Origin: Candidatus Abzuiibacterium crystallinum
GTDB taxonomy: Bacteria; Omnitrophota; Omnitrophia; Omnitrophales; Abzuiibacteriaceae
Direction: 5' to 3'
Length of the DNA: 64,000 nucleotides
Assembly (NCBI GenBank): GCA_002787155.1
Contig: PCVY01000028.1
Coordinates: 9,478-73,477 of the forward strand
Part shown: positions 773-37,543 of the stretch, piece after piece
How positions within the stretch are numbered: the first letter of the stretch is position 1
Layout: each line of letters starts with the position of its first letter
The notes under the pieces: model-generated
Told to the model about the DNA's origin: nothing
What the model saw: the letters and a program-made list of their open reading frames with translations, nothing else
Database searches by the model: none
Program-made: the position numbers and the translations under genes

Positions 773-773
773 C

Positions 774-1253: not shown

Positions 1254-1262
1254 GACTCATCC

Positions 1263-1997
1263 CTATTTGCGAATCCTGAAGAAAAGCAAGAACATAGGCT
1301 TTAGTATACTCCACCAACTCACAATCGGCACCATTTTTGAATAACCCAGTTCCTTGGCAGGATAAATCTTCGAAACTCCCACTTCTTGAACACGGTATTT
1401 TAACCGTATCGCATAATAAAAAAGGTAAACTTCCAGTTCGTACCGGTCTAGCCATGCTTGATGAAAGTCCATGCGTGCCTCTTTTAAGAAATCTGCTCGA
1501 AAAGCACGGAAGCCGTTGGTGCTGTCTGTGATACGCTGACCTGACACGAATGAAAATAAAATCGGATGAACAAAACGTGTCGTGAGCAAACGATAAAGCG
1601 GCATATCGCCATATGTCCCGCTTTTTAAGTACCGAGATCCTTGGACAAAATCCGCCTGCCCGTCCACAATGGGCGCCAAAAGACGGGAAATTTCTTCCGG
1701 ATTATCCTTATTGTTCCCTGCCATTGTGACAACCGCATCATAGTTTTTTTCGATGGCATAATCATAAGCACGTTTCAGCGAAAAACCCACACCAGAACGA
1801 TTTTCATTTCGAATAAGCAAAAATTGATATTGTTGGGCTAATTTGGCAGGCTGTTCGTCCGTTGATGCATCATCCACCAATACAGCATCATATTGAACAT
1901 TTGAGGTTTGCTGTACTAAAAAAGAATGCACGCGCTCCGCTACTTTTGTTAGCTTGATACCTTCATTAAATGCAGGGATCACGATCAGGGCCTTCAT
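1263..1997 (-). CDS. GT2 family glycosyltransferase, DPM1-like polyprenyl-phosphate sugar synthase, with a C-terminal hydrophobic segment
   Basis: The N-terminus reads MKALIVIPAFNEG…VLVDDASTDE, the GT-A signature with the D-x-D region. The C-terminal VSWWSILKPMFLLFF is hydrophobic. A 4-bp ATGA overlap with the downstream gene suggests translational coupling. Confidence 0.7.
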   Translation of the reverse strand: MKALIVIPAFNEGIKLTKVAERVHSFLVQQTSNVQYDAVLVDDASTDEQPAKLAQQYQFLLIRNENRSGVGFSLKRAYDYAIEKNYDAVVTMAGNNKDNPEEISRLLAPIVDGQADFVQGSRYLKSGTYGDMPLYRLLTTRFVHPILFSFVSGQRITDSTNGFRAFRADFLKEARMDFHQAWLDRYELEVYLFYYAIRLKYRVQEVGVSKIYPAKELGYSKMVPIVSWWSILKPMFLLFFRIRK

Positions 1998-5637: not shown

Positions 5638-7200
5638 TTGTCTAACGGTACTAGTCGATATTTCATTAATAGAATGCAAACTGACCGTTTTCGATGGCTT
5701 GATCCTATTGTTCTGTTCTCCTGTTTAGCACTTTTGCTGGGCTATACCGGTGTTCGCGCTTATTTATTATCGATGACGCACGATGAAGCGCTCACCTACA
5801 CTTATTTTGCACTTCTACCCAAAACTTATACGGAAATCATCACCTACCATATTCCAACCACCAACAATCATTTACTAAACTCCTTGTTGATCAAATTCTT
5901 TACGTCTCATTGGGGCGACTCGGAATTCATCATCCGTTTACCTGCCCTGACCGGTCATCTGTTGTTTTTGTTGGGAACTTTATTTTGTTTGCGCCTGTTT
6001 TTCAAAGGACCTTGGTTGTGGGGAAGTTTCTTACTGGTCAATGCGCATCCGTTTCTTTTGGATTATTTTTCATGTGCTCGCGGCTATGCCCTCGCTTTAG
6101 GATTTAGCGCCCTTGCATTTTTCATGATTTTGATGATGATCAAGCATGGCCGGCTGACACAAAGCCCGTTCCAACTTGTCATTGCCATGCTAATGATGGT
6201 ATTAGCAGTTCTGTCAAATTTAGCTTTTTTAAACCTAATGATGCCCATGATGGCATTGATCATGTTTTTTGGTATCTTTTCACTCATTCGCCAAAAAGTT
6301 TCTTTTATGAAGCGCGCACAGTCAATCATAGCGAACCTGGGCCTGCCCATGGCCATCCCCGGTTATGGGTTATATTTCATCTATGCCGAACCCATACGCA
6401 AACTAAAAGCTGCGGACGAATTTTATCATGGCGGCAGTCAAAGCTTTTGGCATGACACCATCGGAAGCTTGCTGACGGTATCCTTGCATGAACAATCATA
6501 CGGTATTCTGGGGAACATTTCTTTTCTTTCAATCCTGGCTGCCGGCTTACTTGTTTTAGCAGGCATTTTACTTCTCTTCTATTTCAAAAAACATCGGACG
6601 TTATCATTTACCGGTAAGTCGCTTGGCTTTTTTTTGCTCCTTTTACTCACTTGTACTGCTGGCAGCATCGCTGAACATATTTTGATAGGGACTGTTTATC
6701 CGTTTGACCGGGCTGCGATTTTCTTCATTCCTATTTTCACTTTTACTTTCCTGTTGACGGCCCGGCTGGCTCTTGACCTCTCAAATCAAGCCATGCAGCG
6801 AATCGTGATCGTAGTGTACGGCTGTCTAATCATCATTGGATTGTGCCATTTTGCGCGTTGCGCTAACTTGACACATTTTTTGTTAAACAAACCAGACGCC
6901 AACACAAAAGATGTCATGCAATATTTACGCGAAATACATCGTGTCGAGAACTTAGCGCCTCGTTCGGTGAGCCTGGGTGTCCATTGGTGGTTTGAACCAG
7001 CTGTGAATTATTACATCATTAGAGAAAAGCTTTACTGGCTTCAATTTGTCAATCGCCGCGGACTAGGCGGAAAATTTGATTATTACTACTTTCGAGAACC
7101 AGATAAGGAAATTATTCCAACGTACAATCTGGAAGTCATCCAGCATTACCCGCTGCCGGATACTTATCTCGCAGAACCTAAGGGTTCGCACACAGGTTAG
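5638..7200 (+). CDS. GT-C fold membrane glycosyltransferase (PMT/ArnT-like)
   Basis: The 520 aa product is polytopic. An HDE motif occurs early (…LSMTHDEALTYTYF…). The gene is divergent from the GT2 gene at 4747..5454. The true start may be an internal Met (MQTDRF…). Confidence 0.6.
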   Translation: MSNGTSRYFINRMQTDRFRWLDPIVLFSCLALLLGYTGVRAYLLSMTHDEALTYTYFALLPKTYTEIITYHIPTTNNHLLNSLLIKFFTSHWGDSEFIIRLPALTGHLLFLLGTLFCLRLFFKGPWLWGSFLLVNAHPFLLDYFSCARGYALALGFSALAFFMILMMIKHGRLTQSPFQLVIAMLMMVLAVLSNLAFLNLMMPMMALIMFFGIFSLIRQKVSFMKRAQSIIANLGLPMAIPGYGLYFIYAEPIRKLKAADEFYHGGSQSFWHDTIGSLLTVSLHEQSYGILGNISFLSILAAGLLVLAGILLLFYFKKHRTLSFTGKSLGFFLLLLLTCTAGSIAEHILIGTVYPFDRAAIFFIPIFTFTFLLTARLALDLSNQAMQRIVIVVYGCLIIIGLCHFARCANLTHFLLNKPDANTKDVMQYLREIHRVENLAPRSVSLGVHWWFEPAVNYYIIREKLYWLQFVNRRGLGGKFDYYYFREPDKEIIPTYNLEVIQHYPLPDTYLAEPKGSHTG

Positions 7201-8147
7201 GCATTCCGACTAATACAAACTTCCTGTTTGGTATACGCTTCGATTAATTCACGAATTCCGTCATCAAGCCTGTGAGTGGGTTTGAATCCTGTTTTCTCAA
7301 TCTTTTCATTAGAAACAATGTAGTCACGCTGATCAGGATCCTTACCCGTTGCGGATTCTGTAAATTTGAAAGACGGTAAGTGATTTTGGATTGCTTGGCA
7401 CAGTTCAAGCTTAGACAAGTTAGCCTCTGACAATCCTACGTTGTAAACTTGGCCGCATAACTTTGAAAAATGATTAATGCCGTGCAGAAAAGCCCTGGCG
7501 ACATCCTTCACGTGAATATAATTACGTTTAAAATGCCCTTCAAAGATTTCCAAAGAGCCGTCTTTCCAAGCCCGATAGGTGAAATCATTCACCAATAAAT
7601 CAATCCGCATGCGGGGCGAAACACCAAAAACAGTCGCCAATCGAAAACTAATCGAATTCTGCCGTCGTAATACAATTTTTTCTGCTTCAACTTTTGTGCG
7701 CGCATAAAGCGACAAGGGGTTCATGGGCGATTCTTCGGTGCACATCTTTCCTTTCTCCCCGATGCCATAGCCGCTGTTGGTAGTAGGAATCAAGATCTTC
7801 TGCCGTTCACTCAACACGCCGCACATTTTCCGTATAGCTTCTTGATTAATCTGAACCGCTTCCTCAGGTCGTTGATCGCACAAAGGCGCACCTACCAAAG
7901 CAGCAAGCGGAATGATGACATCTGCTTTCTCAAAATAGGGAACTAATTGATCAATCTCTCTTACATCACCTTCGATAAACTGGTATCGATCTGATGCCTG
8001 GATAGCGGCAAGGCTTTTTTGTTTATACATCAAATTATCAATTACTGTTACTTGAAAATTATTTCTTAAAAGTTCTGGCACCAAAATCGAACCTATGTAA
8101 CCTGCCCCGCCTGTTACCACCACATGTTGATTCAAGGCTGCCTCCAC
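7197..8147 (-). CDS. NAD-dependent epimerase/dehydratase (extended SDR), nucleotide-sugar 4-epimerase-like
   Basis: GxxGxxG motif (VVVTGGAGYIGS). A YxxxK context is present (YARTK). The protein is 316 aa. Confidence 0.7.
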   Translation of the reverse strand: MEAALNQHVVVTGGAGYIGSILVPELLRNNFQVTVIDNLMYKQKSLAAIQASDRYQFIEGDVREIDQLVPYFEKADVIIPLAALVGAPLCDQRPEEAVQINQEAIRKMCGVLSERQKILIPTTNSGYGIGEKGKMCTEESPMNPLSLYARTKVEAEKIVLRRQNSISFRLATVFGVSPRMRIDLLVNDFTYRAWKDGSLEIFEGHFKRNYIHVKDVARAFLHGINHFSKLCGQVYNVGLSEANLSKLELCQAIQNHLPSFKFTESATGKDPDQRDYIVSNEKIEKTGFKPTHRLDDGIRELIEAYTKQEVCISRNA

Positions 8148-8153
8148 TTGTGC

Positions 8154-8849
8154 CTAAAAAATTTGTTGTGCTTTTTCATAGTCTTTCGGAATACCAATGT
8201 CAATAAATCGGCCTTTTGCTTCAAAACCGAATACTGCTTGATGATTTTGAACCCAGCCAGGGAGCAATACCTGTTCCAAGGACAGTTTTGCGCTTGGCTT
8301 TTTTGCTAACGATGTGAGAAATGACTGATTGAACAAATAGACGCCGCCGTTGATAAAACCTTTCTGAGACGTTTGAGGGCTTAAGAATTGTATTACCCGC
8401 CCCTCTGCATCCGTACACACATGCCCATAACGATCATTATTTTCAACCGTATGCAGGCAAATAGTTAACGCAGACTGTTTTGATCGATGAAACGTTTCTA
8501 ACGATTTCCGCTCAATTTCAAAGAAAGTATCTCCATTCAGAACGAGCACTTGGGCTGATACTTGGTTTGATTTTAAAGCCAATAACAACCCGCCGCCGGT
8601 TCCCAGAAAATCTGGCTCCACGGAATAAACAATATCAACATTGCGATATTGATTCCCAAAATGATTCTGAATCATTTTAGCCTTATAGCCAATGGCCAAA
8701 ATAAATCGCTCAATCCCCTGCTCAATCCAATAATCCATTAAAAATTCGAGGAAAGGGCGGTTATGGATCGGTGCCATGGGTTTTGGGAGATCGGGCACTC
8801 GCGACTTTAATCTTTCTCCAGCCCCACCCGCTAAAATAATGGCATCCAC
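8154..8849 (-). CDS. Sugar-1-phosphate nucleotidyltransferase (NTP_transferase fold; HddC/RmlA-short-like)
   Basis: N-terminus MDAIILAGGAGERLKS…LPKPM, the G-x-G-T/E-R-L motif of sugar-phosphate nucleotidyltransferases. The protein is 231 aa. Confidence 0.7.
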   Translation of the reverse strand: MDAIILAGGAGERLKSRVPDLPKPMAPIHNRPFLEFLMDYWIEQGIERFILAIGYKAKMIQNHFGNQYRNVDIVYSVEPDFLGTGGGLLLALKSNQVSAQVLVLNGDTFFEIERKSLETFHRSKQSALTICLHTVENNDRYGHVCTDAEGRVIQFLSPQTSQKGFINGGVYLFNQSFLTSLAKKPSAKLSLEQVLLPGWVQNHQAVFGFEAKGRFIDIGIPKDYEKAQQIF

Positions 8850-8858: not shown

Positions 8859-9848
8859 TTATTTCTTCCCGAGCATACGCAGCGTAGCCGGGACATTTTG
8901 GCGATACCAAGCAATCGTTTTCTGAATACCGGCATCCAAATCGATGGTCGGCCGCCAGCCAAAGATTTGCTTTGCTTTTTGAATATTGACCGCTAATTTA
9001 TAGTTAATCGAAGGTTTGGATGTGTCATATTGAATCTTCATGGTACGTCCGGAATGACGAATAATTTTCTCCACCAATGTCTTTACCGCAATCGACTTTC
9101 CCATGCCCACATTAACAAGTTCATAGCGTGTTTGTTGTTTTTGGAGCGCCAGGCCGACAAAGTTCACTAAATCGTCCACATGAAGCAAATCACGTTCATC
9201 GGAACCATCACCCCAAACAGTTAAAAGATCGCTCGGGTTGGTTAAAACCTTGGTCATGGTCGCACCAAACACATGCGAACGCTCAAGATCATATTTATCA
9301 TGAGGGCCATAAATATTGGAATGCCTGACAACGGTAAATTTGGTGTCGCTGATTCGAGAAAAAAACTCGCACATTTTTTCAATATAGACCTTCGTCCATC
9401 CCACGCCAAAATACTTATCCTTGATTTGATAGTTAAAATCGTCCTCACGCACTGGCCGGACACCTTCGGGGTACATCGTTGTGCAACTAAAAAAGACAAG
9501 ATGTTTGATTTTTTGCTCAAACCCTTCTCGCAAGATCAAAGAATTCATAACCGCATTGTCCGTCACGTGAATGAAAGGTCTGGTCACAATGTCTTTTGCA
9601 CCGGAGGTAGTGGCAGCGGCTTGAATCACAATAGCCGATCCTTTGATCGCGCGCGAAACATGGGAGTGGTTGGTTAAATCTGCCTTCAGTAATTTGAGGC
9701 GTTTGTTTTGACGTAAGGCTAAGGAAGGCTTTGTCTTCCAAAAAGTACCGGCAATAGGCCCTTTCCAACGTTCAGAAAAATAATCGACCAAATTCCGGCC
9801 GATGAAACCAGTGACACCGCATATTAATAATTGTTGTTTTTGACTCAT
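8859..9848 (-). CDS. GDP-sugar 3,5-epimerase/4-reductase-like SDR (Fcl/MlghC/Rmd-like)
   Basis: N-terminus LLICGVTGFIGRNLV. The motifs NIYGPHDKYDLERSHVFGATMTKV and VWGDGSDERDLLHVDDLVNF align with the GDP-fucose synthase family. Confidence 0.6.
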   Translation of the reverse strand: MSQKQQLLICGVTGFIGRNLVDYFSERWKGPIAGTFWKTKPSLALRQNKRLKLLKADLTNHSHVSRAIKGSAIVIQAAATTSGAKDIVTRPFIHVTDNAVMNSLILREGFEQKIKHLVFFSCTTMYPEGVRPVREDDFNYQIKDKYFGVGWTKVYIEKMCEFFSRISDTKFTVVRHSNIYGPHDKYDLERSHVFGATMTKVLTNPSDLLTVWGDGSDERDLLHVDDLVNFVGLALQKQQTRYELVNVGMGKSIAVKTLVEKIIRHSGRTMKIQYDTSKPSINYKLAVNIQKAKQIFGWRPTIDLDAGIQKTIAWYRQNVPATLRMLGKK

Positions 9849-10522
9849 TTCCTAAAAAACTCCGTCATGATAATACCTATAATGCCAAGCCCATTTTTAA
9901 GTGGGCTCATTTTTCTAATACCCCCGATTCGTTTAGGTTCATCACCTGGAATATCAGCCACTTTTAGCTTACGTTTGGCACACTGGATTGCTAATTGAGG
10001 CTCGATCCCCCCAACGCTGGCGCTAATATGACCTTCTTCTACTACGGATCGTTTCCACGCCCGAAACATAACCAAAGTGTCAGTATAATGCCCGCCGAAT
10101 AGAACGTTGATAAGGGTGGTAAACATCCAATTTCCAAAACTGGTGACAGGATCATCGTCTTCGCTTTTAGCCCCCTGACAATAGCGTGACACGATTACCA
10201 TATCGTAACCTTCTTTCATTTTAGCGACCAACACCGGAATTTTCTCTGGCAAAGAATTTCCATCCGGACTAAACGGGATCATCACGTCGCCTTTGGCCGC
10301 TGCCATGGCTTCGAAATAAGATTGGATCAAACCCTTCGATTTCTGCTTGATAAGAATACAGTCATTCTGCTTGGCATAAGCCTCTAGATATTCATAAGTC
10401 CCGTCAGAAGAATGACCATCAACAAAAATGATTTCATCAACCCATTCCCGTTTAATCTGCGGTAAAATTGCCCGGCACCCTGCCAGTTCATTGACGGTTG
10501 GTATAATTAAAGTAAATTTCAC
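9845..10522 (-). CDS. GT2 family glycosyltransferase, DPM1-like, with no C-terminal TM segment
   Basis: N-terminus MKFTLIIPTVNELAG…IIFVDGHSSDGT. The protein is 225 aa. Confidence 0.65.
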   Translation of the reverse strand: MKFTLIIPTVNELAGCRAILPQIKREWVDEIIFVDGHSSDGTYEYLEAYAKQNDCILIKQKSKGLIQSYFEAMAAAKGDVMIPFSPDGNSLPEKIPVLVAKMKEGYDMVIVSRYCQGAKSEDDDPVTSFGNWMFTTLINVLFGGHYTDTLVMFRAWKRSVVEEGHISASVGGIEPQLAIQCAKRKLKVADIPGDEPKRIGGIRKMSPLKNGLGIIGIIMTEFFRK

Positions 10523-10609: not shown

Positions 10610-11365
10610 TCAGTAGACGTTAATGGCTTCACGTTGAGCATGCAACCCTGAACGAAACGAACTGCCTTCTTTAATGTAGTGACCAATAAATGCGCGCCGA
10701 AACCGATTCTGACTTTGGTTTAATTCTGACCCATGAACTAAGTTGCCATCCATAAAAACCACGGATCCTGCTTTTGCAGGCAAATAGACTTTTCGATAGC
10801 CTTTGGGAATGACGCAAGGCCGTCCTCTGTCATTAACAAAATTGGCTTCAGCGGGATGCGGCGTGCGGTACGCCTCTTCTTTAACCTCTAGGATAGGCTC
10901 CTGATGTGAACCAACATACGCATAAAGACACCCATTCTCCTGATCAGCATCATCCAAAGCGACCCAAGCGCCGCCAAAAACAAATTGCGCTGCCTGCACA
11001 TAAAAATTATCCTGATGCACATCACGTCCAAGTGCGCCTGGTTTTTTAAAATATAACATGCTTTGCAAAGCACAAATTTTCTGGCTCCGAAGCAAGCTTC
11101 CCATTGCGCTGACTATGAATGGATGTTTAAGTAAAGAAAAAAAGGCTGTATTTAGCCGATGAGGATTCATGATGGGAGCATATTCTTCACCACCTTCACA
11201 CTTTAGCGTATCCGCTTGACTTAAATAATGACGGCATTCATGACAACTTAAAGCTTGGTCCGCTACCAAAAAACCGTCCCGATGATAGTTTGTCACTTCT
11301 TGAGTCGTCAAGAGCCTTTGACGAGATTGCCCTTCAATCATTGATCGGCTTTCCCCGCCTCTCAT
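10610..11365 (-). CDS. PhyH-family Fe(II)/2-oxoglutarate-dependent oxygenase
   Basis: N-terminal LTTQEVTNYHRDGFLV resembles the PhyH N-terminus. An H-x-D motif is present (HQDNFY), with a downstream His (LVHGS). The ORF-track start at 11410 overlaps the gmd gene, so a later Met (MRGGES…) is used here. Confidence 0.5.
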   Translation of the reverse strand: MRGGESRSMIEGQSRQRLLTTQEVTNYHRDGFLVADQALSCHECRHYLSQADTLKCEGGEEYAPIMNPHRLNTAFFSLLKHPFIVSAMGSLLRSQKICALQSMLYFKKPGALGRDVHQDNFYVQAAQFVFGGAWVALDDADQENGCLYAYVGSHQEPILEVKEEAYRTPHPAEANFVNDRGRPCVIPKGYRKVYLPAKAGSVVFMDGNLVHGSELNQSQNRFRRAFIGHYIKEGSSFRSGLHAQREAINVY

Positions 11366-11369
11366 ATAT

Positions 11370-12356
11370 TTAAGCCTCGCCTGCCGAAATCCGTTCACGC
11401 CAATATTCAAGCAAATGATGCACGCTTTCTTTAAATTCGTACTTAGGTTTCCAGCCGGTCATTTTGGAAAATTTGGTCGTGTCAGGTATTTGAAGCGTCA
11501 CATCCGCCGGTCTTAAAAGCGCGGGGTCTACACGAGAAGGGATTGGTGAGCGACTCTCCTTTTTCAGCAAATCTAAGAATTCGCCCACCGAAATAGAAGT
11601 GGTACCGCCTATATTATACGCTTCGCCCGGTTCACAGTATTGCGTGGCAACCCAATATGCCTCCATTGCATCGCGGACATCGATCATGGTTCTAATCGAA
11701 TCCAAGTTACCGTGTACCAACTCTTTTTGTTTTCCCGTTTCAATCAAAGCCACTTGCCTGGCAAAGGATGTGGCAAAGAGATCGCGGCGTCTTGGATTGA
11801 AATAAGCGAACATGCGTGTGCGAATAATTTTCATCCCATAGCTTCGAAAATAACAAAACCCGAGTAAATCTTGGGCAACTTTGGAAACCGCATAAGGGCT
11901 CGAAGGTTTCATAGGCGCTTCTTCTTTAATCGGCACATCTTTAGGATCTACTTGTCCGTAAACTTCTGAAGTGCTGCATAACTGAATAATGGGGTCTATC
12001 TCGGCAGCGCGAATGGCTTCGAATAAATTAGAGGTGGCTAAAATATTATTACTTAAAACGGCATTGGGATTGTCAAATGAGGCGCGCACATTCGCGTAGG
12101 CAGCCAAATGGAAAATCACATCGGGTTTAACACGACGCATCACATTAAATACAGAGGCAAAATCGTTGAGATCGCATTCATAGGTTTTGATTTGAGAAGC
12201 AATGTTTGCTAGGTTGTTTTGAGCGGTTGTGCTGTGCCATCTTAAAATGCCATGCACTTCGGTGCCCTGGCAGTGTTGAATGATATGCTCGGCTAAATAA
12301 CTGCCGCCCGAACCCGCTATACCTGTAATGAGCGCTCGTTTAAAAGGACGTTTCAT
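11370..12356 (-). CDS. gmd: GDP-mannose 4,6-dehydratase
   Basis: N-terminal ALITGIAGSGGSYLAEHI…GTEVHGILRWHSTT matches the Gmd signature (ALITGITGQDGSYLAE…VHGI.RRSS). The SEVYG…SPYAVSK catalytic region is present. Confidence 0.8.
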   Translation of the reverse strand: MKRPFKRALITGIAGSGGSYLAEHIIQHCQGTEVHGILRWHSTTAQNNLANIASQIKTYECDLNDFASVFNVMRRVKPDVIFHLAAYANVRASFDNPNAVLSNNILATSNLFEAIRAAEIDPIIQLCSTSEVYGQVDPKDVPIKEEAPMKPSSPYAVSKVAQDLLGFCYFRSYGMKIIRTRMFAYFNPRRRDLFATSFARQVALIETGKQKELVHGNLDSIRTMIDVRDAMEAYWVATQYCEPGEAYNIGGTTSISVGEFLDLLKKESRSPIPSRVDPALLRPADVTLQIPDTTKFSKMTGWKPKYEFKESVHHLLEYWRERISAGEA

Positions 12357-13366
12357 TACGAAACCGGCTTTTTATCTAAGAATACATTGTAAGTTTTTAT
12401 GAATTTTCCATTCGTTGCCTTATACCAATCCATTACATCTCGAATCCCCTCCTCAACCGAAATGGAAGGTTTGAAGCCCAATGCTTTTAGTCTTGAAATA
12501 TCCATCACGCGTCTTAGATCGCCTTTCGGTTTTGATGTATCCCATTCTATTTCAAGCGGACGCCCATAACAGCGTTTAATGATCTCTGTTAATTCTTTAA
12601 TTGAAATACCCTGACCGCTCCCTATATTGATTGGTTGGGTTGCTTGCTTTTCAACCACCAGCAGCATAGCTCGCGCAACATCTTTGGCGTGAATAAAATC
12701 TCGCATCGGGGACCCATCCCCCCAGACGCAAAGCGGATTCTCGCCTTCCATCGTTCTTTTAATGAGCGAAGGAATCACCATGGCATTCACCGGATCAAAA
12801 TTATCATGCGGGCCATACACATTGGCTGGACGAACAATTGAACACCGATTCCAACCATATTCAATTTTATACGCTTCAGCCTGCAATTCTCCCATCCGTT
12901 TCGCCCATCCGGCAAATCGGTCGTTTTCTGAAGGAAATGTCTTCCACACATCATCTTCATGGAACACTTCAGCTGGCGCGTAAACACCTATTGTGCTCGT
13001 ATAGAGATACCACTTCACATTGGCCTGCCGCGCCGCTTCCATCATGTTTGTATTAAATAACAAAATCGGGACCAAAAAACTAGCCGGGCGCTTTCCAGTC
13101 ACACCGGGTGAACCTTTAACACCCACTAGATGAAAAACGTAATCCATTCCTTTGCAAACTTCAGCGCATTGATCAAATTTGGTTAAGTTAACACGGCAAA
13201 ATTCAACCTTGGGGTGTGCCAGCGAAGGATCATCCAAAGAAACGACTTTTACCTTTGCGCCGGCATTAACCAAAAGTTCCACCAATTGACGTCCGATCAA
13301 TCCCGTTCCACCCGTCACAAGTACTCTTTGATTCTTAAACATTGATACCATTCTTTCTTGAACCAA
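12356..13366 (-). CDS. fcl: GDP-L-fucose synthase (GDP-4-keto-6-deoxy-D-mannose 3,5-epimerase/4-reductase)
   Basis: The motifs NVYGPHDNFDPVNAMVIPSLIKRT and VWGDGSPMRDFIHAKDVARAM closely match Fcl ([23 protein letters not shown] / VWGSGTPMREFLHVDDMA). The gene is immediately downstream of gmd. Confidence 0.8.
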   Translation of the reverse strand: MVQERMVSMFKNQRVLVTGGTGLIGRQLVELLVNAGAKVKVVSLDDPSLAHPKVEFCRVNLTKFDQCAEVCKGMDYVFHLVGVKGSPGVTGKRPASFLVPILLFNTNMMEAARQANVKWYLYTSTIGVYAPAEVFHEDDVWKTFPSENDRFAGWAKRMGELQAEAYKIEYGWNRCSIVRPANVYGPHDNFDPVNAMVIPSLIKRTMEGENPLCVWGDGSPMRDFIHAKDVARAMLLVVEKQATQPINIGSGQGISIKELTEIIKRCYGRPLEIEWDTSKPKGDLRRVMDISRLKALGFKPSISVEEGIRDVMDWYKATNGKFIKTYNVFLDKKPVS

Positions 13367-14407
13367 CTAAAAAGGTCCTTTAAATTTCTCTTCCCAAGAA
13401 TAAAAAACTTCTTTGGATAAATCGGTTTCTTTTAAGTCTAGCATTTTTTCGGCTAATCGAACAATCTGACGGGCCGAAGGATAAAAAAGATTTTCAAGCG
13501 GCCGGGTCGTCGGACAAGGCGTTTGAGCAAATCCAAGACGCTCGACCGGCTTTTTCAGTTCTTTAAAACAAGCTTTGGAAATTTGTGCGGCGAGCTCGGC
13601 GCCAAAACCGCAAAAAACCCAGTCGTAATCGGCAATCATCGCAAGTCCGGTGCGCTTGACAGATTCGATCATAGGATTAATATCCAGCGGCACCAAAGAG
13701 CGTACATCTATCACTTCCAATGCAACATCCCGCCTTTTTAAAATTTCGGCTGCTTTCAGCGCTTCCACATTCATCCATGAGGTACAGATCACCGTCAGGC
13801 TGTTTCCTTTTAATCTGACTTCTGATTTACCGAGTTGATCCGTTCGATTAAAATCCACGGTATCAACAGCATCGTATAACCACCGATGCTCTAAGAAAAT
13901 AACCGGATTGTCATCTTGGATAGCGGCTCTCAATAAGCCATAAGCATTTTGCGGCGTTGTCGGCATCACAACTTTTAATCCGGGGACGTGGGCAAAAAAA
14001 CTTTGAAGCGATTTGCTGTGTTGAGCCCCTTGCCCCCAACCACGCCCAAGGATACCTCTGATCACAAGCGGCACCTTCACCTTTCCGCCTGTCACATAAC
14101 GCATGTTCGACACCATGTTAACAATTTGATTCATCGCCAACATCATAAAATCAACGCGAATGTGCGTATGAACCGGTCTTAAACCAGACATAGCGGCGCC
14201 CAAAGCAACACCGGTCATCGCATCTTCGGATAACGGTGTGCCAAAACATCTTTTCTTTCCGAACGTTTCAACCAAGCCAACCGTGCTGCCGAATATCCGC
14301 TTATGGTCAGGCACATCGAGCCCGTATACAAAGACTCTGTTATCAGCTTTCATTTCATCACGCAAAGCGCGATTAATCGCATCTCGAAAAGCAATTCGCT
14401 CACTCAC
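13367..14407 (-). CDS. Thiamine-diphosphate-dependent enzyme, E1 beta / transketolase C-terminal-like subunit
   Basis: The 346 aa product has the transketolase-like pyrimidine-binding and C-terminal domain pattern (…VFVYGLDV…, …GFGAELAAQIS…). It pairs with the E1 alpha-like gene at 15611..16579. Confidence 0.65.
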   Translation of the reverse strand: MSERIAFRDAINRALRDEMKADNRVFVYGLDVPDHKRIFGSTVGLVETFGKKRCFGTPLSEDAMTGVALGAAMSGLRPVHTHIRVDFMMLAMNQIVNMVSNMRYVTGGKVKVPLVIRGILGRGWGQGAQHSKSLQSFFAHVPGLKVVMPTTPQNAYGLLRAAIQDDNPVIFLEHRWLYDAVDTVDFNRTDQLGKSEVRLKGNSLTVICTSWMNVEALKAAEILKRRDVALEVIDVRSLVPLDINPMIESVKRTGLAMIADYDWVFCGFGAELAAQISKACFKELKKPVERLGFAQTPCPTTRPLENLFYPSARQIVRLAEKMLDLKETDLSKEVFYSWEEKFKGPF

Positions 14408-14414
14408 GATTCAC

Positions 14415-15614
14415 CTATGAAAGCGGTATTTGGTTGAGTAGTTGACATAGTTTAGAAATTCTTTCCTCACTCAATGAAGGATAATTTCCAATGTAAAACC
14501 CAAAAAAGTGGACATGTTCAACATTCGGGAAATCTTTGTAGTTGATTTTTTTTAGGTACGGCTTCAGATAAGGCTGCCTCAATTGATTACCGCCCCCCGA
14601 AGTTCCGCGTCTAAATTCAACCCCACTATCCTTTAATGTTTCCATGACACGTTCACAGAAAGCATGATTGGGTTCTTTTAAAACCAGTGTAAAAGCATAA
14701 TTACTGCATCCCTCTAATTCAAAATCGACAAAGTACCGCTTTGGATCAAGATTGGCTAAAAAAAATGCTAAATTCCGATTACGCAACTTAATTTCTTCAT
14801 CTAATCGCTTGAGATGCGACAACCCCATCACGGCATTGAGTTCCGTACTTCGAATATTAAAACCGGGGTAAGCAAAAATAAATTCCGGGTTCAGATCGGA
14901 ATATTCTGATTCATATTGACGTTTCAAATCTGAATCGGTTGATTCCCGCACCAGACCATGAGAACGCAACATTCGAACTGTTTCGTAAATCGCTTTATTA
15001 TTTGTTGAAACCATCCCACCTTCAATCGTGGTTAAATGATGTGCATAATAAAATGAAAAATTTGAAACCAAACCAAAAGTGCCTAGTTTTTTGGTGCAAT
15101 GAGTTGCGCCATAAGACTCACAAACATCTTCAACTAAAGGAATGTTTTTTTCGGCCAGGAAAGCAAGCAGCGAATCTGTGAGAGCGTTATAACCCAGGAT
15201 GTGCGTCAAAAAAACTGCTTTTGTTTTCTTGGTCACCTTCTTTTTAATTTGGTTTTCATCCATTCCCAATGTTCGAGGATTAATATCCACAAAAATAGGA
15301 TCAAAACCAAGTCGAATCACTGCTGTAATATCCGAGACCCATGTCAATGTCGGCACCAAAACCTCGCCCGTTCCATGCAAAGCTTGAAAAGCAGCAAGCG
15401 TCACCAGGTTAGCCGAAGAGCCTGAATTAACAAATACGCTGTGCTTGACTCCGAGCCACCGTGACCACGCCTCTTCGAATGCTAATACATTGCGCGATTG
15501 TGTGAGAATGTTGTCTTCTTTTAGGAAATCTATGAGCTCTTGGCGATCGCCGGCGGTAATATTGTTATGCATCAAAGGCCAATGAAGTTTGTTATTCATT
15601 GTTTTTCCGCTCAT
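14415..15614 (-). CDS. DegT/DnrJ/EryC1/StrS-family PLP-dependent aminotransferase or dehydratase
   Basis: The 399 aa product has DegT-family architecture (…AFEEAWSRWLGVKHSVFVNSGSSANLV…). It lies between the split E1 alpha and E1 beta genes. Confidence 0.7.
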   Translation of the reverse strand: MSGKTMNNKLHWPLMHNNITAGDRQELIDFLKEDNILTQSRNVLAFEEAWSRWLGVKHSVFVNSGSSANLVTLAAFQALHGTGEVLVPTLTWVSDITAVIRLGFDPIFVDINPRTLGMDENQIKKKVTKKTKAVFLTHILGYNALTDSLLAFLAEKNIPLVEDVCESYGATHCTKKLGTFGLVSNFSFYYAHHLTTIEGGMVSTNNKAIYETVRMLRSHGLVRESTDSDLKRQYESEYSDLNPEFIFAYPGFNIRSTELNAVMGLSHLKRLDEEIKLRNRNLAFFLANLDPKRYFVDFELEGCSNYAFTLVLKEPNHAFCERVMETLKDSGVEFRRGTSGGGNQLRQPYLKPYLKKINYKDFPNVEHVHFFGFYIGNYPSLSEERISKLCQLLNQIPLS

Positions 15615-16579
15615 ATCGTGCTGAAAATATGGTTGTATAATTCTTGAGATGACGGGAATGGTGCTTGTTTGGCTTTTAAAATACTTTTTTCAATTCTCTC
15701 TTTTAAGCGGGATTGAATCCCTTCGAGTGATTGCTTTTTAATCCCTTTACGAAGACAAATTTTCTCAATTTGATAACAAGGATCATACAACTTCGCTTGC
15801 TGAGAAGTCGGCTTCTTTCGATAACCAAACTTAAAATCCTCGTTAACCCCTACATGTTCCAGAAACCGATAATATTTCAGACAAAGAAAAGCGGGCTGCG
15901 CCTTCTTTTTCATTTGTTGGATTAACTTTGAGGTTTTTTGATATGCGACATCAGCGCGCGACCCATCTCCTTCGTCGTAATAACAACGAAACCCTTTGAC
16001 CGCATCACGGAATGATCGAAACCCCCTTCTGGCTTTGCCTGGCGTGTGAATAGCGAGATCGTTGTCTTCACAAACAAACAAAATACGCAAGCCGCGCAAA
16101 CTGGCAAAATTCAAGCTTTCCCAAAACACACCTTCTTCAATTGCCCCGTCTCCAAAAAAAACAGCAACCATGCCCCCCTTTTTTTCATACTGGTTGGCAA
16201 AAGCAGCGCCCACCGCTACCGGAATGGTCGTCCCAACAACGGCAGAGGTGGCCATCAATTGATGCTCAGGCGAAGTCAAATGCATCGAACCCGCCTTCCC
16301 CATTGCCGGTCCTGTTTGTTTTCCATGCAATTCCGCAAAAAAACCATCCGGCTCTTGAGTGGCCATCAGATAAAGGCCGTGGTTTCGGTAAGTGCCAAAT
16401 ATTTTTGATTGCGGCGGAAGCGCGCTCATGACTCCGGCTGCAATGGCTTCCTGCCCGATACACAGATGGACGGGTGTTTTCATTTCATCTTGAGAATAAT
16501 GTGCCTGAATCGCTTCTTCGCAAAAGCGGATCAAGAAGATTTGTTCGTAACATTGACGAGCTAAGCTAGGCGTGAACAC
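15611..16579 (-). CDS. Thiamine-diphosphate-dependent dehydrogenase E1 alpha-like subunit
   Basis: ThDP-binding region GDGAIEEGVFWESLNFASL. The protein is 322 aa. Confidence 0.65.
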   Translation of the reverse strand: MFTPSLARQCYEQIFLIRFCEEAIQAHYSQDEMKTPVHLCIGQEAIAAGVMSALPPQSKIFGTYRNHGLYLMATQEPDGFFAELHGKQTGPAMGKAGSMHLTSPEHQLMATSAVVGTTIPVAVGAAFANQYEKKGGMVAVFFGDGAIEEGVFWESLNFASLRGLRILFVCEDNDLAIHTPGKARRGFRSFRDAVKGFRCYYDEGDGSRADVAYQKTSKLIQQMKKKAQPAFLCLKYYRFLEHVGVNEDFKFGYRKKPTSQQAKLYDPCYQIEKICLRKGIKKQSLEGIQSRLKERIEKSILKAKQAPFPSSQELYNHIFSTI

Positions 16580-16580
16580 G

Positions 16581-17588
16581 TTAGGTCACATTCTGAAAAT
16601 CATCCGGTTCGTACACCACAATTTTACTTCCGTGCAAATCAAAATTAAAAGAGACATGGACTAATTTCTTTAGTTTTTCTCGGACAGCTTTTTGAAGCTC
16701 CGGCTTGACGAAGAGTAAAATAAACCCACCCCCGCCAGCGCCTAGAATCTTACCTCCCGTAGCGCCAGCAGAAAGCGCTGCTTGATAAATTTCATCAATT
16801 TGCGGTGTGGTAATTTTGTCCGAGAGTTTACGCTTAAATTGCCAAGATTCATGTAATAATTTGCCGAATTGCTCAACAGGCGTTTTTTGATCCTGTAGAA
16901 TATGAATGGCTTCATCCACCATTTCCGACATGTGCTTAAGTTCTGCTTGGCGCTCATTCATATTTTTAATCACTTCAGATGCAATTTTGAAAGCAAAGCG
17001 AGAAAATCCGGTAAAAAAAAGCATGAGATGATCTTTCAAGTCTGACATTCGGTCTTTCGGCAAAATAAGAGGATGCACACCGAATGAATCGTCCCGGTTA
17101 AACTCGATTAAATTAACGCCGCCATAAGATGCCAAAATCTGGTCTTGGGAGCCCACCGCTTCTTTAATGACGTTTTGTTCAACATGAACGGCGCTTCGCG
17201 CCAGCTCCTGTTTATCGATCATGGCGCCCTGAAGAGCTTTAATCGCATGGATAAGACCTACTGTAAAAGCTGAACTGGAACCTAGGCCTGATCTGGCCGG
17301 CAAATCGCCATCGTGATGAATTTCTAGGCCTTTTTGCATATTCATCCATGACAAAACAGCTTTAACTGCGGGATGTTTTATTTCTGAAATTTGATTCACA
17401 TACTCAATTTGCGAATAGACAATTCGGTGTTTATATTCAAAGAAAGGAGGTAAGAAACGACAAGTGATATAACAATATCGATCGATAGCAGTCGCTAACA
17501 CCCTACCGCCATGTTGACGGTACCAGGCAGGATAATCAGTACCACCGCCAAAAAATGAGATCCTAAAAGGCGTTCTGCTAATAATCAT
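16581..17588 (-). CDS. GHMP-family sugar kinase (HddA / fucokinase / galactokinase-like)
   Basis: GHMP ATP-binding motif PARSGLGSSSAFTVGL. The protein is 335 aa. It is in the same operon as nucleotide-sugar genes. Confidence 0.7.
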   Translation of the reverse strand: MIISRTPFRISFFGGGTDYPAWYRQHGGRVLATAIDRYCYITCRFLPPFFEYKHRIVYSQIEYVNQISEIKHPAVKAVLSWMNMQKGLEIHHDGDLPARSGLGSSSAFTVGLIHAIKALQGAMIDKQELARSAVHVEQNVIKEAVGSQDQILASYGGVNLIEFNRDDSFGVHPLILPKDRMSDLKDHLMLFFTGFSRFAFKIASEVIKNMNERQAELKHMSEMVDEAIHILQDQKTPVEQFGKLLHESWQFKRKLSDKITTPQIDEIYQAALSAGATGGKILGAGGGGFILLFVKPELQKAVREKLKKLVHVSFNFDLHGSKIVVYEPDDFQNVT

Positions 17589-17759: not shown

Positions 17760-19340
17760 GTGCTAAGCCAAAATAGAGATAAAACCACATTTGCGCTGCT
17801 TTCGATCATTTTGCTAAGCAACGCCATTTTTCTCTTCCGGCACGCCTCCCATTATTTTGATGTCTACGAGATGGGGGCTTTGATGGACGCCGGATGGCGC
17901 ATCCTCAAAGGGCAGTTGCCTTATCTTGATTTCCAGTGTTCGTCAGGACCTGTTCATCTTTATTTAATCACTCTCTTCTACCGGATATTTGGCATTGGCA
18001 AAAATGCCATGCTTGTCTTTCTAATTGTGTCACATTCTGCCGCTATTTTACTAACTTATGCCATGGCACGTCGATATTGCCCCAAAGCCATTGCCTTTTT
18101 AACTTCTCTCCTGACAACCGTTTGTTTTTATTGGACGATCTCTCATCCTTGGCCAGATCAAACCGCGCACCTATTTGGTTTGGGAGGTGTATGCCTTCTC
18201 ATATATCAAACTCCCTTTTCTTCAAAAAGTTCTGCTTTTAAAAATGGCTTGCTTTGCGGTTTCTTTTTCATTTTATCGATGGCAACCAAAAGCAATGTAG
18301 GCCTTGCTTACGGATTAACATTTGTATTTTTCTTTCTTTCTGTCGAGGGACGCTTGCAGGGACTCCTAGGACTTCTTCTGGGAACTTTGTTGGGCGGCGC
18401 CATCATGTTATTGGTGATTCGAGACCCGGTTGCTTATTACAACCAAGCATTTGCGGCTTTCTACACCGGAGAGCTGGCGAGTCGGCGTTTGATTTCATTT
18501 TTAATCTTGTTTACTTATTTCGTCGAGTGGTATTGGCTGATCGGCATCATCACTTTAGCCGTCATCGAGAAAAATATTAAAACACATCAACCGTGGGTAA
18601 TGCTTTTTATTTGTTTCTACGGCATCATGATTTTTACACGCTTCAGCAGTACTATCAGACCAGAAGCTAATATCCCGCTTTCTGGCGTCTTCTTGGCCAT
18701 GGCTTTTAGCTTGTTATTTAAGGATCGAGAAAATCACACGTCAACACTTGGGAAAATTGTTTTTAAAAGCGCCATCGTCATGATGGTTTTCTTCTCCGGT
18801 TTACTCATTGCGTCATCGGCCAAGAGAGGACTTGCTCTAAACGCCTGGGCTGACGGTGGAATTGATTCTTTTAATCACTACACCATGGCTTCTCGCGGCG
18901 TAGCAGGATGGCAAACGAGTCATCAAACCGGCGAAGCCGTTGACGCCTTGACTCAACTAATCAAAACCTATGTGCCCGCCAATGATTCTTTGCTGGTCTT
19001 AAGCGACCTGCCGATCCTTTATCTTTTAACGAACCATGAAAGCTACGAAGGAATTCCGGTTGCTTTGCGTGTTAATGAAGAACCGCCTCCCGGAGAACCT
19101 TCTCAAAAAATATCGCAGTACGTTCAAACGCACACGCCGGATTGGATTGTGACGCACAAGTCAGAACCAAGCACACCGCGGGTAACTGACATCATCCCTT
19201 ACTTGGGTTTAACCGATATGATTAACGAACATTACATGATTGCGGCACAGCATGAAAATTATGTTTTATTAGTTCACCGGAAGCGGCTAACTGAATTAAC
19301 ACCAACCATTGTTCAGCTACATCAACTAACGGGCGTTTAA
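17760..19340 (+). CDS. Polytopic GT-C-like membrane glycosyltransferase with a C-terminal soluble domain (tandem paralog 1)
   Basis: The 526 aa product has many TM helices. It shares conserved blocks with the next gene (RTGEAVD, DSLLVL.DL.ILYLLT.H.SY.GIP, PDW.VTH). There is an acidic residue in the first loop (MDAGWRI). Confidence 0.5.
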   Translation: MLSQNRDKTTFALLSIILLSNAIFLFRHASHYFDVYEMGALMDAGWRILKGQLPYLDFQCSSGPVHLYLITLFYRIFGIGKNAMLVFLIVSHSAAILLTYAMARRYCPKAIAFLTSLLTTVCFYWTISHPWPDQTAHLFGLGGVCLLIYQTPFSSKSSAFKNGLLCGFFFILSMATKSNVGLAYGLTFVFFFLSVEGRLQGLLGLLLGTLLGGAIMLLVIRDPVAYYNQAFAAFYTGELASRRLISFLILFTYFVEWYWLIGIITLAVIEKNIKTHQPWVMLFICFYGIMIFTRFSSTIRPEANIPLSGVFLAMAFSLLFKDRENHTSTLGKIVFKSAIVMMVFFSGLLIASSAKRGLALNAWADGGIDSFNHYTMASRGVAGWQTSHQTGEAVDALTQLIKTYVPANDSLLVLSDLPILYLLTNHESYEGIPVALRVNEEPPPGEPSQKISQYVQTHTPDWIVTHKSEPSTPRVTDIIPYLGLTDMINEHYMIAAQHENYVLLVHRKRLTELTPTIVQLHQLTGV

Positions 19341-21027: not shown

Positions 21028-23034
21028 GTGCTCAACACCAGCAAAACAATTCCAAGCAGCGCTGTTCCTATCAAAATTGGCTTGGTACAGATTAATAATA
21101 GTTTTTCCGGCCAGAATTATTTCCCTTATTCGGTTGGTATCATTCAATCGTTTTTGAAAAAGCACGTCAAAAATATCGAACGTTTCCGGTTTTTGCTGCC
21201 AATCTATTGTCGTATTCCGGTTGCCAACGCAGTCAAGCAATTAGAAGGCGCCCATATCATTTTCTTTAGTGCATACGTTTGGAACATCCGGATTTCTTAT
21301 GAAATTGCTAAACAAATTAAAACATCACACCCAGAAACCATCATCGTCTTTGGAGGACCGCAAGTACCCGACCGCGTTGAATCGTTTGCGCGCGAACATC
21401 CCTGCATTGATGTCTGCTGTCATGGTGAAGGAGAACAGGTAGCCAAAGCTATACTAGAAAAAGGAATCTACGGAAAATGGGAAGAAGTGCCTGCGATCAG
21501 TTTTATAGATCAAAATGATCAATTGGTCCAGACGCCCCGTCCGGAACGGATTCGGGATATGACACTGATTCCCTCACCTTACCTCGATGGCACTTTTGAA
21601 CCCTTGATAAAAGCCTACCCGAAGGAAAATTGGATTGTTATGTGGGAAACAAACCGAGGCTGCCCGTTTTCTTGTACCTTTTGCGACTGGGGATCTGCGA
21701 TTCAAAGCAAAGTCTTTCAATTTGATCTAGACCGGATATGCCGAGAAATTGATTGGTTTGTGAAACATAAAATACAATTCATCTTTTGCGCGGATGCCAA
21801 CTTCGGGATTTTGCCTCGGGATCTGGAAATTACACGCCATTTGGCTGACGCTAAGAAAAAAACAGGGTATCCGCAAGCTATGTCCGTGCAAAACACAAAG
21901 AATGCAACGGAGCGCGCTTATCAGGTCCAAAAAACACTCGCAGAGGCAGGTTTAAATAAAGGCGTAACGGTTTCCCTGCAGTCAGTGGATGATGTTACTT
22001 TAAAAAGCATTAAACGCAGCAACATTTCGACTAACTCATTTCAAGAATTGCAAAGGCGTTTCACCAAGGACAGGATAGAAACATACTCCGACATCATATT
22101 GGGTCTACCGGGTGAGACATACCATTCTTTTGCCGATGGCATTTCTTCGGTCATTGAAAATGGCCAACATAACCGCATCCAATTTAACAATTTGTCTATC
22201 TTGCCGAATGCTGAAATGGGAGATCCGGCTTACCAGAAAAAATACGGCATGGAGACTGTTGAATCAAAAGTGGTTAACATCCATGGGTCACTCGTGGAAT
22301 CAGAGGATAACATTTATGAAACACAAGAACTCGTCATTGCAACCAAATCAATGCCGCGGGAAGACTGGGTTAAGACAAGGGCCTTTTCTTGGATGACATC
22401 GCTCCTTCACTTTGACAAAATTTTTCAGATACCTCTTCTAGTTATTCACAAACTTGGCGCAGTTAAGTTTCGCGATCTAATCGAAATTTTCATAGAAAGT
22501 GACTTAACCCAATATCCTACCTTATCAGAAATCCGTGAATTCTTTTTCGAAAAAGCGCGCGACATTCAAAATGGCGGTGCCGAATTTTGTCGTGCTGAGA
22601 ACTGGCTCAATATCTGGTGGCCGGCTGATGAGTATATTTTTATAAAGTTGTCCGTGGAGCAAAAACTAGATTTGTTTTATCGTGAAGCGCAAAGCATTCT
22701 TGAAAGGTTTTTAAAGCAAAAATCAATCAAACTTCCTGACAATATATTAACGGATGCGGTGCTGCTTAATCAAAGTTTAATCAAACAACCCTTTCAAACC
22801 AAAAACATTAAGATTCAACTTCACTATAATCTTTTTGAATATTATCAGGCAGCTCGCCAAAGCGAAATGGTTAACTTGGAGGATAAACCGGTTACGCACT
22901 TAGTTGACCGAACCACCCAACAATGGCATTCATGGGAAGAATGGTACGAAAAAGTTGTTTGGTTTGGCAATAAAAAAGGCGCTTACTTATATACCAACAC
23001 GCCCACTGATATTGAACTCGCCGGTCACTTTTAA
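21028..23034 (+). CDS. B12-binding-domain radical SAM enzyme, class B (likely a methyltransferase)
   Basis: CxxxCxxC radical SAM motif (GCPFSCTFCDWG). It is preceded by an N-terminal region resembling a B12-binding Rossmann domain (…IIFFSAYVWN…IIVFGGPQV…). The 668 aa product has an extra C-terminal extension of about 200 aa. Confidence 0.7.
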   Translation: MLNTSKTIPSSAVPIKIGLVQINNSFSGQNYFPYSVGIIQSFLKKHVKNIERFRFLLPIYCRIPVANAVKQLEGAHIIFFSAYVWNIRISYEIAKQIKTSHPETIIVFGGPQVPDRVESFAREHPCIDVCCHGEGEQVAKAILEKGIYGKWEEVPAISFIDQNDQLVQTPRPERIRDMTLIPSPYLDGTFEPLIKAYPKENWIVMWETNRGCPFSCTFCDWGSAIQSKVFQFDLDRICREIDWFVKHKIQFIFCADANFGILPRDLEITRHLADAKKKTGYPQAMSVQNTKNATERAYQVQKTLAEAGLNKGVTVSLQSVDDVTLKSIKRSNISTNSFQELQRRFTKDRIETYSDIILGLPGETYHSFADGISSVIENGQHNRIQFNNLSILPNAEMGDPAYQKKYGMETVESKVVNIHGSLVESEDNIYETQELVIATKSMPREDWVKTRAFSWMTSLLHFDKIFQIPLLVIHKLGAVKFRDLIEIFIESDLTQYPTLSEIREFFFEKARDIQNGGAEFCRAENWLNIWWPADEYIFIKLSVEQKLDLFYREAQSILERFLKQKSIKLPDNILTDAVLLNQSLIKQPFQTKNIKIQLHYNLFEYYQAARQSEMVNLEDKPVTHLVDRTTQQWHSWEEWYEKVVWFGNKKGAYLYTNTPTDIELAGHF

Positions 23035-36607: not shown

Positions 36608-36612
36608 GGTAT

Positions 36613-37524: not shown

Positions 37525-37543
37525 TTTAATGATCTTTCATAAA

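Follow-up and report, generated by a model that had tools for sequence, protein, structure and literature searches.

A 64,000-nucleotide stretch of Candidatus Abzuiibacterium crystallinum (contig PCVY01000028.1, positions 9,478 to 73,477; here called the window) contains a minus-strand operon that encodes the two chains of a thiamine diphosphate (ThDP)-dependent enzyme related to the E1 component of pyruvate dehydrogenase (PDH). These chains, E1alpha and E1beta, are encoded on either side of a gene for a DegT-family protein and in the same operon as a GHMP kinase. We consider it fairly probable that this operon directs the synthesis of a C-branched heptose destined for a surface glycan, and that E1alpha and E1beta together form a stand-alone ThDP-dependent carboligase. 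Observed directly were the family assignments of the genes, a His-type active site in the DegT protein, a conserved gene neighbourhood, the absence of E2 and E3 genes nearby and a separate clade for the E1 sequences. The first-pass annotation of the window had proposed a ThDP-dependent transfer of a two-carbon unit to a keto sugar, similar to the reaction of YerE. Judged from sequence, this is the reading best supported by the ColD-type DegT protein, the conserved module free of E2 and E3, and the separate clade.

The central genes are listed below. All four are genuine open reading frames (ORFs) where they had been annotated, with domain matches that confirm them.

16581..17588, minus strand: GHMP kinase, HddA/WcbL-like, heptose-7-phosphate 1-kinase type (GHMP_kinases_N and GHMP_kinases_C)
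15611..16579, minus strand: E1alpha, ThDP-binding, predicted carboligase subunit (PF00676 E1_dh, 8.5e-41)
14415..15614, minus strand: DegT protein, predicted ColD-type sugar 3-dehydratase dependent on pyridoxamine or pyridoxal phosphate (PF01041, 3.5e-68)
13367..14407, minus strand: E1beta (PF02779 Transket_pyr, 6.8e-34; PF02780 Transketolase_C, 1.2e-26)
13370..13435, minus strand: C-terminal extension of E1beta, residues 325-346, ending FKGPF, family-specific

The operon is tightly packed and runs from 17588 to 7197. One base separates the kinase gene from that of E1alpha, the E1alpha and DegT genes overlap by 4 bases, and the gap between DegT and E1beta is 7 bases; because the junctions are so short, these four genes are probably co-transcribed.

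The E1alpha/E1beta pair

The pair has the architecture of a heterotetramer-type E1, with an alpha E1_dh chain and a separate beta chain that contains the pyrimidine-binding and C-terminal domains. E1_dh and the transketolase-type domains, split over the two chains, are the only Pfam families on it, and it does not resemble the single chain of YerE. E1alpha contains the ThDP/Mg motif GDG143-145...N173, and residues G143-D144-G145 and N173 are invariant in 25 relatives; H242 is invariant in the family as well. In E1beta the glutamate of TPLSE61 aligns with that of TPLNE in PDB entry 1ik6, and the histidine of the QHSKS motif is kept. In E1 enzymes this beta-chain glutamate activates ThDP.

Could the pair be the E1 of an ordinary dehydrogenase complex for pyruvate, acetoin or branched-chain 2-oxoacids, with E2 and E3 encoded elsewhere and an incidental place in a glycan operon? 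Every catalytic residue of true E1s is present, the best named models are those for PDH E1alpha and PDH E1beta, and homologues are called acetoin or pyruvate dehydrogenase in public sources. Nevertheless, we regard this explanation as very improbable. Both subunits score below the curated NCBIfam cut-offs, E1alpha with 236.8 bits against 393.85 for TIGR03182 and E1beta with 298.6 bits against 321 for NF006667 (both PDH E1 models). The top PDB match of E1alpha, human PDH E1alpha, reaches 92 bits only. Furthermore, the sugar-gene neighbourhood described below is kept in dozens of loci of many phyla, including bacteria of the candidate phyla radiation (CPR), and none of these loci has E2 or E3, whereas in canonical operons E2 is adjacent.

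The absence of E2 and E3 from the window, already pointed out in the first-pass annotation, was confirmed by Pfam or NCBIfam scans of ∼50 ORFs and by a six-frame scan for signature motifs. The six-frame scan also detected no E2 or E3 motif in 86 related loci. As a positive control, the identical scan detected E2 just downstream of E1beta in canonical operons of Streptomyces and Embleya. Annotated canonical operons of Enterococcus, Desulfotalea and Streptomyces show the expected E2. Among these controls, L088, L089, L090, L091 and L093 have E2 adjacent. The Streptomyces and Embleya matches, found in a plasmid collection, had been candidates for actinomycete sugar-branching enzymes; they were rejected as canonical operons with E2 and served as outgroup. 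Most bacteria encode E2 and E3 for their housekeeping complexes, so the presence of these genes elsewhere in the genome would not discriminate between a conventional E1 and a carboligase.

In a neighbour-joining tree of 96 E1alpha sequences, those from glycan loci group together, and in 95 of 100 bootstraps all six canonical sequences fall outside their clade. A clustering with housekeeping enzymes, which had been named beforehand as an argument against a role in sugar branching, was therefore not seen for E1alpha against these six sequences. The E1alpha of the window is 30-32% identical to E2-linked E1alpha proteins, compared with 38-58% for its relatives from glycan loci. Taken together, the evidence says that the pair is a predicted stand-alone enzyme and not a dehydrogenase component.

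The glycan-locus enzymes also have features of their own. E1beta ends in an extension of 22 residues, and alignments with solved E1beta structures stop at or before residue 324 of the query. The terminus F[KR]GPF is found in 78 of 87 E1beta proteins from glycan loci and in 0 of 6 canonical ones. Possible roles of this tail are to obstruct the face at which E2 binds or to line the acceptor site. The residues that are invariant in the clade and different from the canonical set include R184 in the alpha chain and H82, R84, G125 and R175 in the beta chain, some of which adjoin the catalytic His motif.

The DegT protein resembles ColD

The first-pass annotation had called the DegT protein an aminotransferase/dehydratase; dehydratase holds and aminotransferase does not. 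The top PDB matches of the protein are ColD structures (2gms, 3gr9 and others; E 6e-52, 30% identity over 352 aa). It scores 175-180 bits against ColD, compared with 128-132 bits against CDP-sugar E1 (RfbH, an Fe-S enzyme) and 131 bits against perosamine synthase. His192 aligns with His188 of ColD, a column marked by the variants H188N (3b8x) and H188K (2r0t), which is the site of the usual Schiff-base (internal-aldimine) Lys. The ColD-type His is present in all 50 E1-linked DegT homologues in related loci; the only two homologues with Lys are both unlinked aminotransferases. No E3-type reductase partner was found in the operon by Pfam and NCBIfam domain scans. We conclude that the DegT protein is, by homology, a ColD-type 3-dehydratase, ColD itself being GDP-4-keto-6-deoxymannose 3-dehydratase. 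An aminotransferase that aminates the sugar or its branch was considered and rejected, since His replaces Lys.

Neighbouring genes point to a GDP-heptose

The other genes of the operon and the divergent genes upstream of it are as follows.

12356..13366, minus strand: Fcl-like short-chain dehydrogenase/reductase (SDR), candidate branch-ketone reductase or epimerase/reductase, a putative role (PF01370)
11370..12356, minus strand: GDP-sugar 4,6-dehydratase-like SDR (heptose type), or possibly an Rmd-type reductase (PF16363, 240 bits)
10610..11410, minus strand: PhyH-family Fe/2-oxoglutarate dioxygenase, putative hydroxylation (PF05721, 2.1e-26)
9845..10522, minus strand: small glycosyltransferase of family 2 (GT2), polyprenyl-phosphate sugar transferase type (PF00535)
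8859..9848, minus strand: second Fcl-like SDR (PF01370)
8154..8849, minus strand: HddC-like sugar-1-phosphate guanylyltransferase (PF00483)
7197..8147, minus strand: Cj1427-like GDP-heptose C4-dehydrogenase, the third SDR (match to PDB 6vo6/6vo8)
17760-19340 and 19347-20897, plus strand: two GT-C (PMT_2) glycosyltransferases, divergent, upstream (PF13231)
21028..23034, plus strand: B12-binding radical SAM protein, KedN5-family C-methyltransferase-like, divergent, upstream (PF02310 and PF04055)

The HddC-like nucleotidyltransferase and the Fcl-like genes are in the same operon, as annotated, although all their model scores are below cut-off. The best model for the nucleotidyltransferase is HddC (NF049965, 196.6 bits, cut-off 300). 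The SDRs at 12356..13366 and 8859..9848 reach 167 and 127 bits with the GDP-L-fucose synthase model (cut-off 500). The GHMP kinase scores 145 bits with the NCBIfam HddA model (cut-off 600), and its top PDB matches are the heptose kinases 3k85, 4usk/4usm and 4n3o; among heptose kinases it is closest to 3k85, WcbL and HddA. The SDR at 11370..12356, labelled Gmd in the first-pass annotation, has the STSEVYG and YAVSK motifs, but its 156 bits with TIGR01472 gmd (cut-off 415) do not sustain the name, and it is closest to Rmd and to 7us5, the GDP-heptose 4,6-dehydratase of Campylobacter jejuni. Since the curated-model scores of the kinase, the nucleotidyltransferase and the Gmd-like SDR fall below the cut-offs, these proteins are, as judged by such models, relatives and not equivalogs.

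The SDR at 7197..8147 matches 6vo6/6vo8 with E 1e-106 and 52% identity over 305 aa. The depositor name of these entries is generic, and the code 6vo6 was not cited in the literature searched; we take the entries to be Cj1427, a GDP-heptose C4-dehydrogenase. Taken together, the neighbours point to a GDP-heptose as the likely substrate.

In NCBIfam the small GT2 matches AglJ best (89 bits), followed by dolichyl-phosphate hexose transferase (65 bits); neither score reaches its cut-off. The combination of an AglJ/DPM-like GT2 with GT-C proteins suggests delivery via a polyprenyl-phosphate carrier, and the two GT-C proteins are the probable users of a lipid-linked sugar. The radical SAM protein scores 268 bits with NF033712 (cut-off 700). 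An ORF of 520 aa without a Pfam match (5638-7200) abuts the end of the operon.

A conserved module in related loci

A scan of one genome per species yielded at least 521 relatives, of which the best 80 were examined. These 80 come from Planctomycetia, Omnitrophota, Deltaproteobacteria, Elusimicrobiota, Nitrospira, Verrucomicrobiota and Alphaproteobacteria, as well as from several CPR lineages, Saganbacteria, Dehalococcoidales and one Thermoplasmata archaeon. Full flanks, defined as ≥6 kb to either side, are available for 42 loci. All 42 have E1beta, 31 have a DegT gene, 29 the GHMP kinase and 25 a Cj1427-like SDR; 30 of the 42 have one or the other of the putative 4-keto-forming SDRs. The bracketing of the DegT gene by the two E1 genes, on which the first-pass annotation had laid weight, is real in the window but lineage-specific: the orders DegT-alpha-beta, alpha-DegT-beta and alpha-beta-DegT all occur among the relatives. 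The PhyH dioxygenase is rarely conserved in related loci. Radical SAM homologues (48-59% identity) are found in some, and a different B12-binding radical SAM protein of 520 aa is found in 24.

Six related loci, unlike the window, encode an L-2-hydroxyglutarate oxidase (329 bits, cut-off 299; for example L024 4-1266 and L005 1476-2777). Cj1427 works by a ping-pong mechanism in which 2-oxoglutarate is reduced to L-2-hydroxyglutarate (PMC10680097). The oxidase genes fit a reduction of 2-oxoglutarate by the Cj1427-type enzymes, and the oxidase would recycle the by-product.

Two cultured species have the module on plasmids. On plasmid AZO_p6 of Azospirillum lipoferum 4B (locus L087) the E1 pair is AZOLI_RS29260/29255, with QFKGPF at the end of its beta chain, and is accompanied by a His-type DegT protein and a Cj1427-like SDR (60% identity). 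Plasmid pDMC1 of Solidesulfovibrio magneticus RS-1 has the whole set, including kinase, nucleotidyltransferase, GT2, radical SAM and GT-C genes (locus L095; E1 pair DMR_RS21995/22000). The pDMC1 E1beta is without the C-terminal tail; the plasmid repeats the pairing of GT2 and GT-C seen in the window, and its module adjoins IS66 elements. The plasmid location in these two species suggests that the cassette spreads horizontally.

Some loci depart from this pattern. The locus from the Thermoplasmata archaeon, a metagenome-assembled genome (L034), and three CPR loci (L030, L039 and L040) have the E1 pair with Gmd-like and Fcl-like genes and are without a ColD-type gene; contamination or mis-binning is possible in these cases. 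In L005 (15274-17093), and also in L006, a second, divergent E1alpha/E1beta pair was found, with a beta chain of 27% identity and without the tail. It adjoins an HMGL-like (homocitrate-synthase-type) gene and lies a few kb from a fusion of phosphoenolpyruvate mutase and nucleotidyltransferase. The arrangement suggests that an E1-type decarboxylase works in a phosphonate pathway.

A larger proposal can be drawn from these loci, which we put forward tentatively and with somewhat less than even confidence. A large E1alpha/E1beta clade would have left the dehydrogenase complexes to become a dedicated module for C-branching of GDP-heptose, together with a ColD-type 3-dehydratase and a Cj1427-type oxidase. 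Most of its members have the F[KR]GPF beta tail and changes in residues close to the active site. The product would be a yersiniose-like branched sugar of nine carbons, as yet undescribed, that reaches envelopes or proteins by way of a lipid carrier and GT-C enzymes. The module would move on plasmids, and its carriers would be spread over many phyla, most of them uncultured, with CPR bacteria and at least one archaeon among them.

Proposed pathway

In the pathway that we propose, GmhA and GmhB would have to be encoded outside the window. The Cj1427-like dehydrogenase, the 4,6-dehydratase-like SDR or both would convert a GDP-heptose to a 4-keto sugar, from which the ColD-type enzyme would strip the 3-hydroxyl to give a GDP-3-deoxy- (or 3,6-dideoxy-) 4-keto-heptose. 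Because the adjacent DegT protein is of the ColD type, the E1 pair would, like YerE, be presented with a 3-deoxy-4-keto sugar. E1alpha/E1beta would decarboxylate pyruvate to hydroxyethylidene-ThDP, and addition of the hydroxyethyl-ThDP carbanion to the C4 ketone would give a 4-C-acetyl tertiary alcohol. An Fcl-like SDR could then reduce the branch ketone to a 1-hydroxyethyl group, and the PhyH dioxygenase and the KedN5-like B12-radical-SAM enzyme may decorate the branch further. Finally, the small GT2 would load the sugar on polyprenyl phosphate, and the GT-C enzymes would transfer it outside the cytoplasm. We infer the order of these steps, pyruvate as the donor, C4 as the site of addition and every role downstream of it.

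The pair could be a sugar carboligase that differs in these details. In place of pyruvate it could use 2-oxoglutarate, 2-oxobutyrate, hydroxypyruvate or a longer hydroxy-keto acid, and its acceptor could be a GDP-4-keto-heptose that is not deoxygenated or is in its 6-deoxy form. In that case the result would differ from a simple two-carbon branch on a 3-deoxy sugar. The YerE relatives ErwE and MygE take C4-C8 keto acids (PMC9306805), 2-oxoglutarate is already a co-substrate of Cj1427-type enzymes, and the window has both a C4-dehydrogenase-like and a 4,6-dehydratase-like SDR. The 3-dehydratase is missing from 11 of the 42 full-flank loci, so 3-deoxygenation is not obligatory, which counts against the pathway as drawn above as well. 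On the other hand, a review has all known split-E1 sugar-branching enzymes giving C2 branches, with KbDH-alpha/beta limited to pyruvate (PMC12247030), and domain scans of the operon detected no pyruvate aldolase or similar donor-making gene. We consider such a variant unlikely.

A role for the pair outside nucleotide-sugar chemistry appears less likely still. The pair would then be an enzyme like 1-deoxy-D-xylulose-5-phosphate synthase or transketolase that makes a sugar-phosphate precursor, or simply a 2-oxoacid decarboxylase whose aldehyde or acyl product goes into another decoration. E1alpha does have a weak DXP_synthase_N match, a transaldolase-like gene and a SIS isomerase adjoin the module in one related locus, and the second E1 pair of L005 stands in a phosphonate-type context. 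However, the tightest and most conserved partners of the pair, adjacent or overlapping, are the ColD-type dehydratase and the Cj1427-like dehydrogenase, which act on GDP-sugars. Prior removal of the 3-hydroxyl fits a 4-keto sugar as acceptor and, we infer, takes away the hydroxyl needed for a transketolase-type cleavage.

Several further points weigh against a carboligase acting on a GDP-heptose. The catalytic residues of dehydrogenase E1s (alpha His242 and the His of beta QHSKS) are all kept, so that sequence by itself would also allow lipoyl-dependent chemistry. The outgroup of the tree is small, with six canonical sequences; the 80 loci were selected as best matches, which favours a coherent clade; and the actinomycete sugar-branching E1s (AviB1/B2, Pau11/12 and KbDH) were not part of the E1alpha tree. 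Because the kinase, the nucleotidyltransferase and the Gmd-like SDR are all below cut-off, the heptose assignment leans mainly on the 52% match to 6vo6, an entry that we take to be Cj1427. Pfam and NCBIfam scans found neither GmhA nor GmhB in the window, nor any SIS isomerase or HAD phosphatase, and only the HddA-like and HddC-like members of the four-enzyme set HddA/HddC/GmhA/GmhB are present. SIS genes are found in six related loci.

Other genes of the window

The whole window is a glycan island, with Wzm/Wzt, NeuB, NeuC, many glycosyltransferases and methyltransferases, sulfotransferases and two STT3-like proteins. The latter are STT3/PglB-like oligosaccharyltransferase homologues of 845 and 925 aa (50689-53226 and 57644-60421), and this pair hints at protein N-glycosylation. 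At 35540-38491 two sulfotransferase genes surround a second PhyH-family dioxygenase, with a Wzt-type ATP-binding cassette transporter ATPase adjoining (38512-39807); the glycan may be sulfated. A separate amino-sugar set occupies 1-3025. Its partial DegT protein, a true aminotransferase, keeps the normal Lys; the other members are an acetyltransferase of the NeuD/PglB type (774-1253), a GT2 (1263-1997) and an oxidoreductase of the GFO/IDH/MocA family (1994-3025). Besides the ORF at the end of the operon, long ORFs without a Pfam match are found at 3026-4750, 41962-43071, 43864-44616 and 48702-49643.

Significance

If the proposal is true, it joins split-E1 branching, known from antibiotics, with YerE-type branching of lipopolysaccharide (LPS), two fields kept apart in a recent review. 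It would predict that many poorly known bacteria display on their surfaces a new family of C-branched sugars derived from heptose, which would shape phage and immune recognition, and the enzymes would join the few ThDP catalysts that produce chiral tertiary alcohols. The chemistry in itself would not surprise a specialist. The cultured carriers A. lipoferum 4B and S. magneticus RS-1 make the prediction directly testable. Our literature search returned nothing relevant on E1 genes in O-antigen clusters or on branched heptose or nonose sugars. In the literature searched we found no description of the GDP-heptose/ColD context, the surface-glycan setting, the breadth of the clade or the beta tail; a 2024 survey of ∼120 split-E1 clusters, which lay outside that search, may cover part of this.

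Comparison with known systems

The pair shares with the E1s of housekeeping PDH, acetoin and branched-chain complexes the fold, the ThDP/Mg motifs and the catalytic Glu and His. It differs from them in having no adjacent E2 or E3, low identity (30-32%), a separate clade, scores below cut-off and the 22-residue beta extension.

A split E1 that branches sugars had been presented as a new route in the first-pass annotation, but it has precedents: for C2-branched sugars of actinomycete antibiotics, such pairs are already the accepted route. AviB1/AviB2 (eurekanate), Plm8/Plm9, which correspond to Pau11/Pau12 (paulomycose), and enzymes of the aldgamycin and kosinostatin pathways have been assigned the transfer of a C2 unit from pyruvate to a keto sugar (PMC4802897, PMC4753412, PMC12247030). 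KbDH-alpha/beta from the kibdelomycin pathway couples pyruvate with ketones in vitro, and ∼120 clusters with split-E1 branching enzymes have been reported (PMC12247030). In the same review, the branched sugars of LPS are ascribed to YerE-like enzymes, and split E1s are placed in secondary metabolism (PMC12247030). Like the pair in the window, the actinomycete split E1s (alphaKADH2 class of the TEED database) are encoded by two genes, E1alpha and E1beta, among nucleotide-sugar genes and without E2 or E3 nearby. They differ in acting on dTDP-type 2,6- or 2,3,6-deoxyhexoses for secondary metabolites of Actinomycetota, whereas the pair in the window has a GDP-heptose and ColD-type context in a surface-glycan island with a GT2/GT-C export route. 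Its carriers belong to Planctomycetota, Omnitrophota, Verrucomicrobiota, Nitrospirota, CPR bacteria and others.

In the yersiniose A route of Yersinia pseudotuberculosis, YerE adds an acetyl group from pyruvate to a CDP-3,6-dideoxy-4-keto sugar (PMC9306805). The YerE/YerF route parallels our proposal in its 4-keto sugar, 3-deoxygenation, ThDP-dependent addition of an acyl anion at C4 and reduction of the branch ketone, and in serving LPS or a surface glycan (PMC9306805). In contrast, YerE, whose kin include ErwE, MygE and MMAR_2332, is a single chain of the decarboxylase (acetolactate-synthase-like) superfamily and uses a CDP-hexose, while the enzyme in the window is a two-chain E1 that probably acts on a GDP-heptose. 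The enzyme in the window is therefore an analogue of YerE and not a homologue.

The closest parallel for the sugar substrate is the GDP-heptose set of C. jejuni (HddA, HddC, Cj1427, the 4,6-dehydratase and the HS:5 C3-dehydratase), each member of which has a homologue in the window. The C3-dehydratase of C. jejuni works on GDP-4-keto-heptoses (PMC10440746, PMC10680097). Together with Cj1427 it produces GDP-D-glycero-3-deoxy-4-keto-heptose in vitro (PMC10680097), which is the acceptor that we propose for the E1 pair. In C. jejuni the final steps fall to cupin-type epimerases and C4-reductases, and the route lacks a ThDP enzyme, whereas the window is without such an epimerase and has the E1 pair instead.

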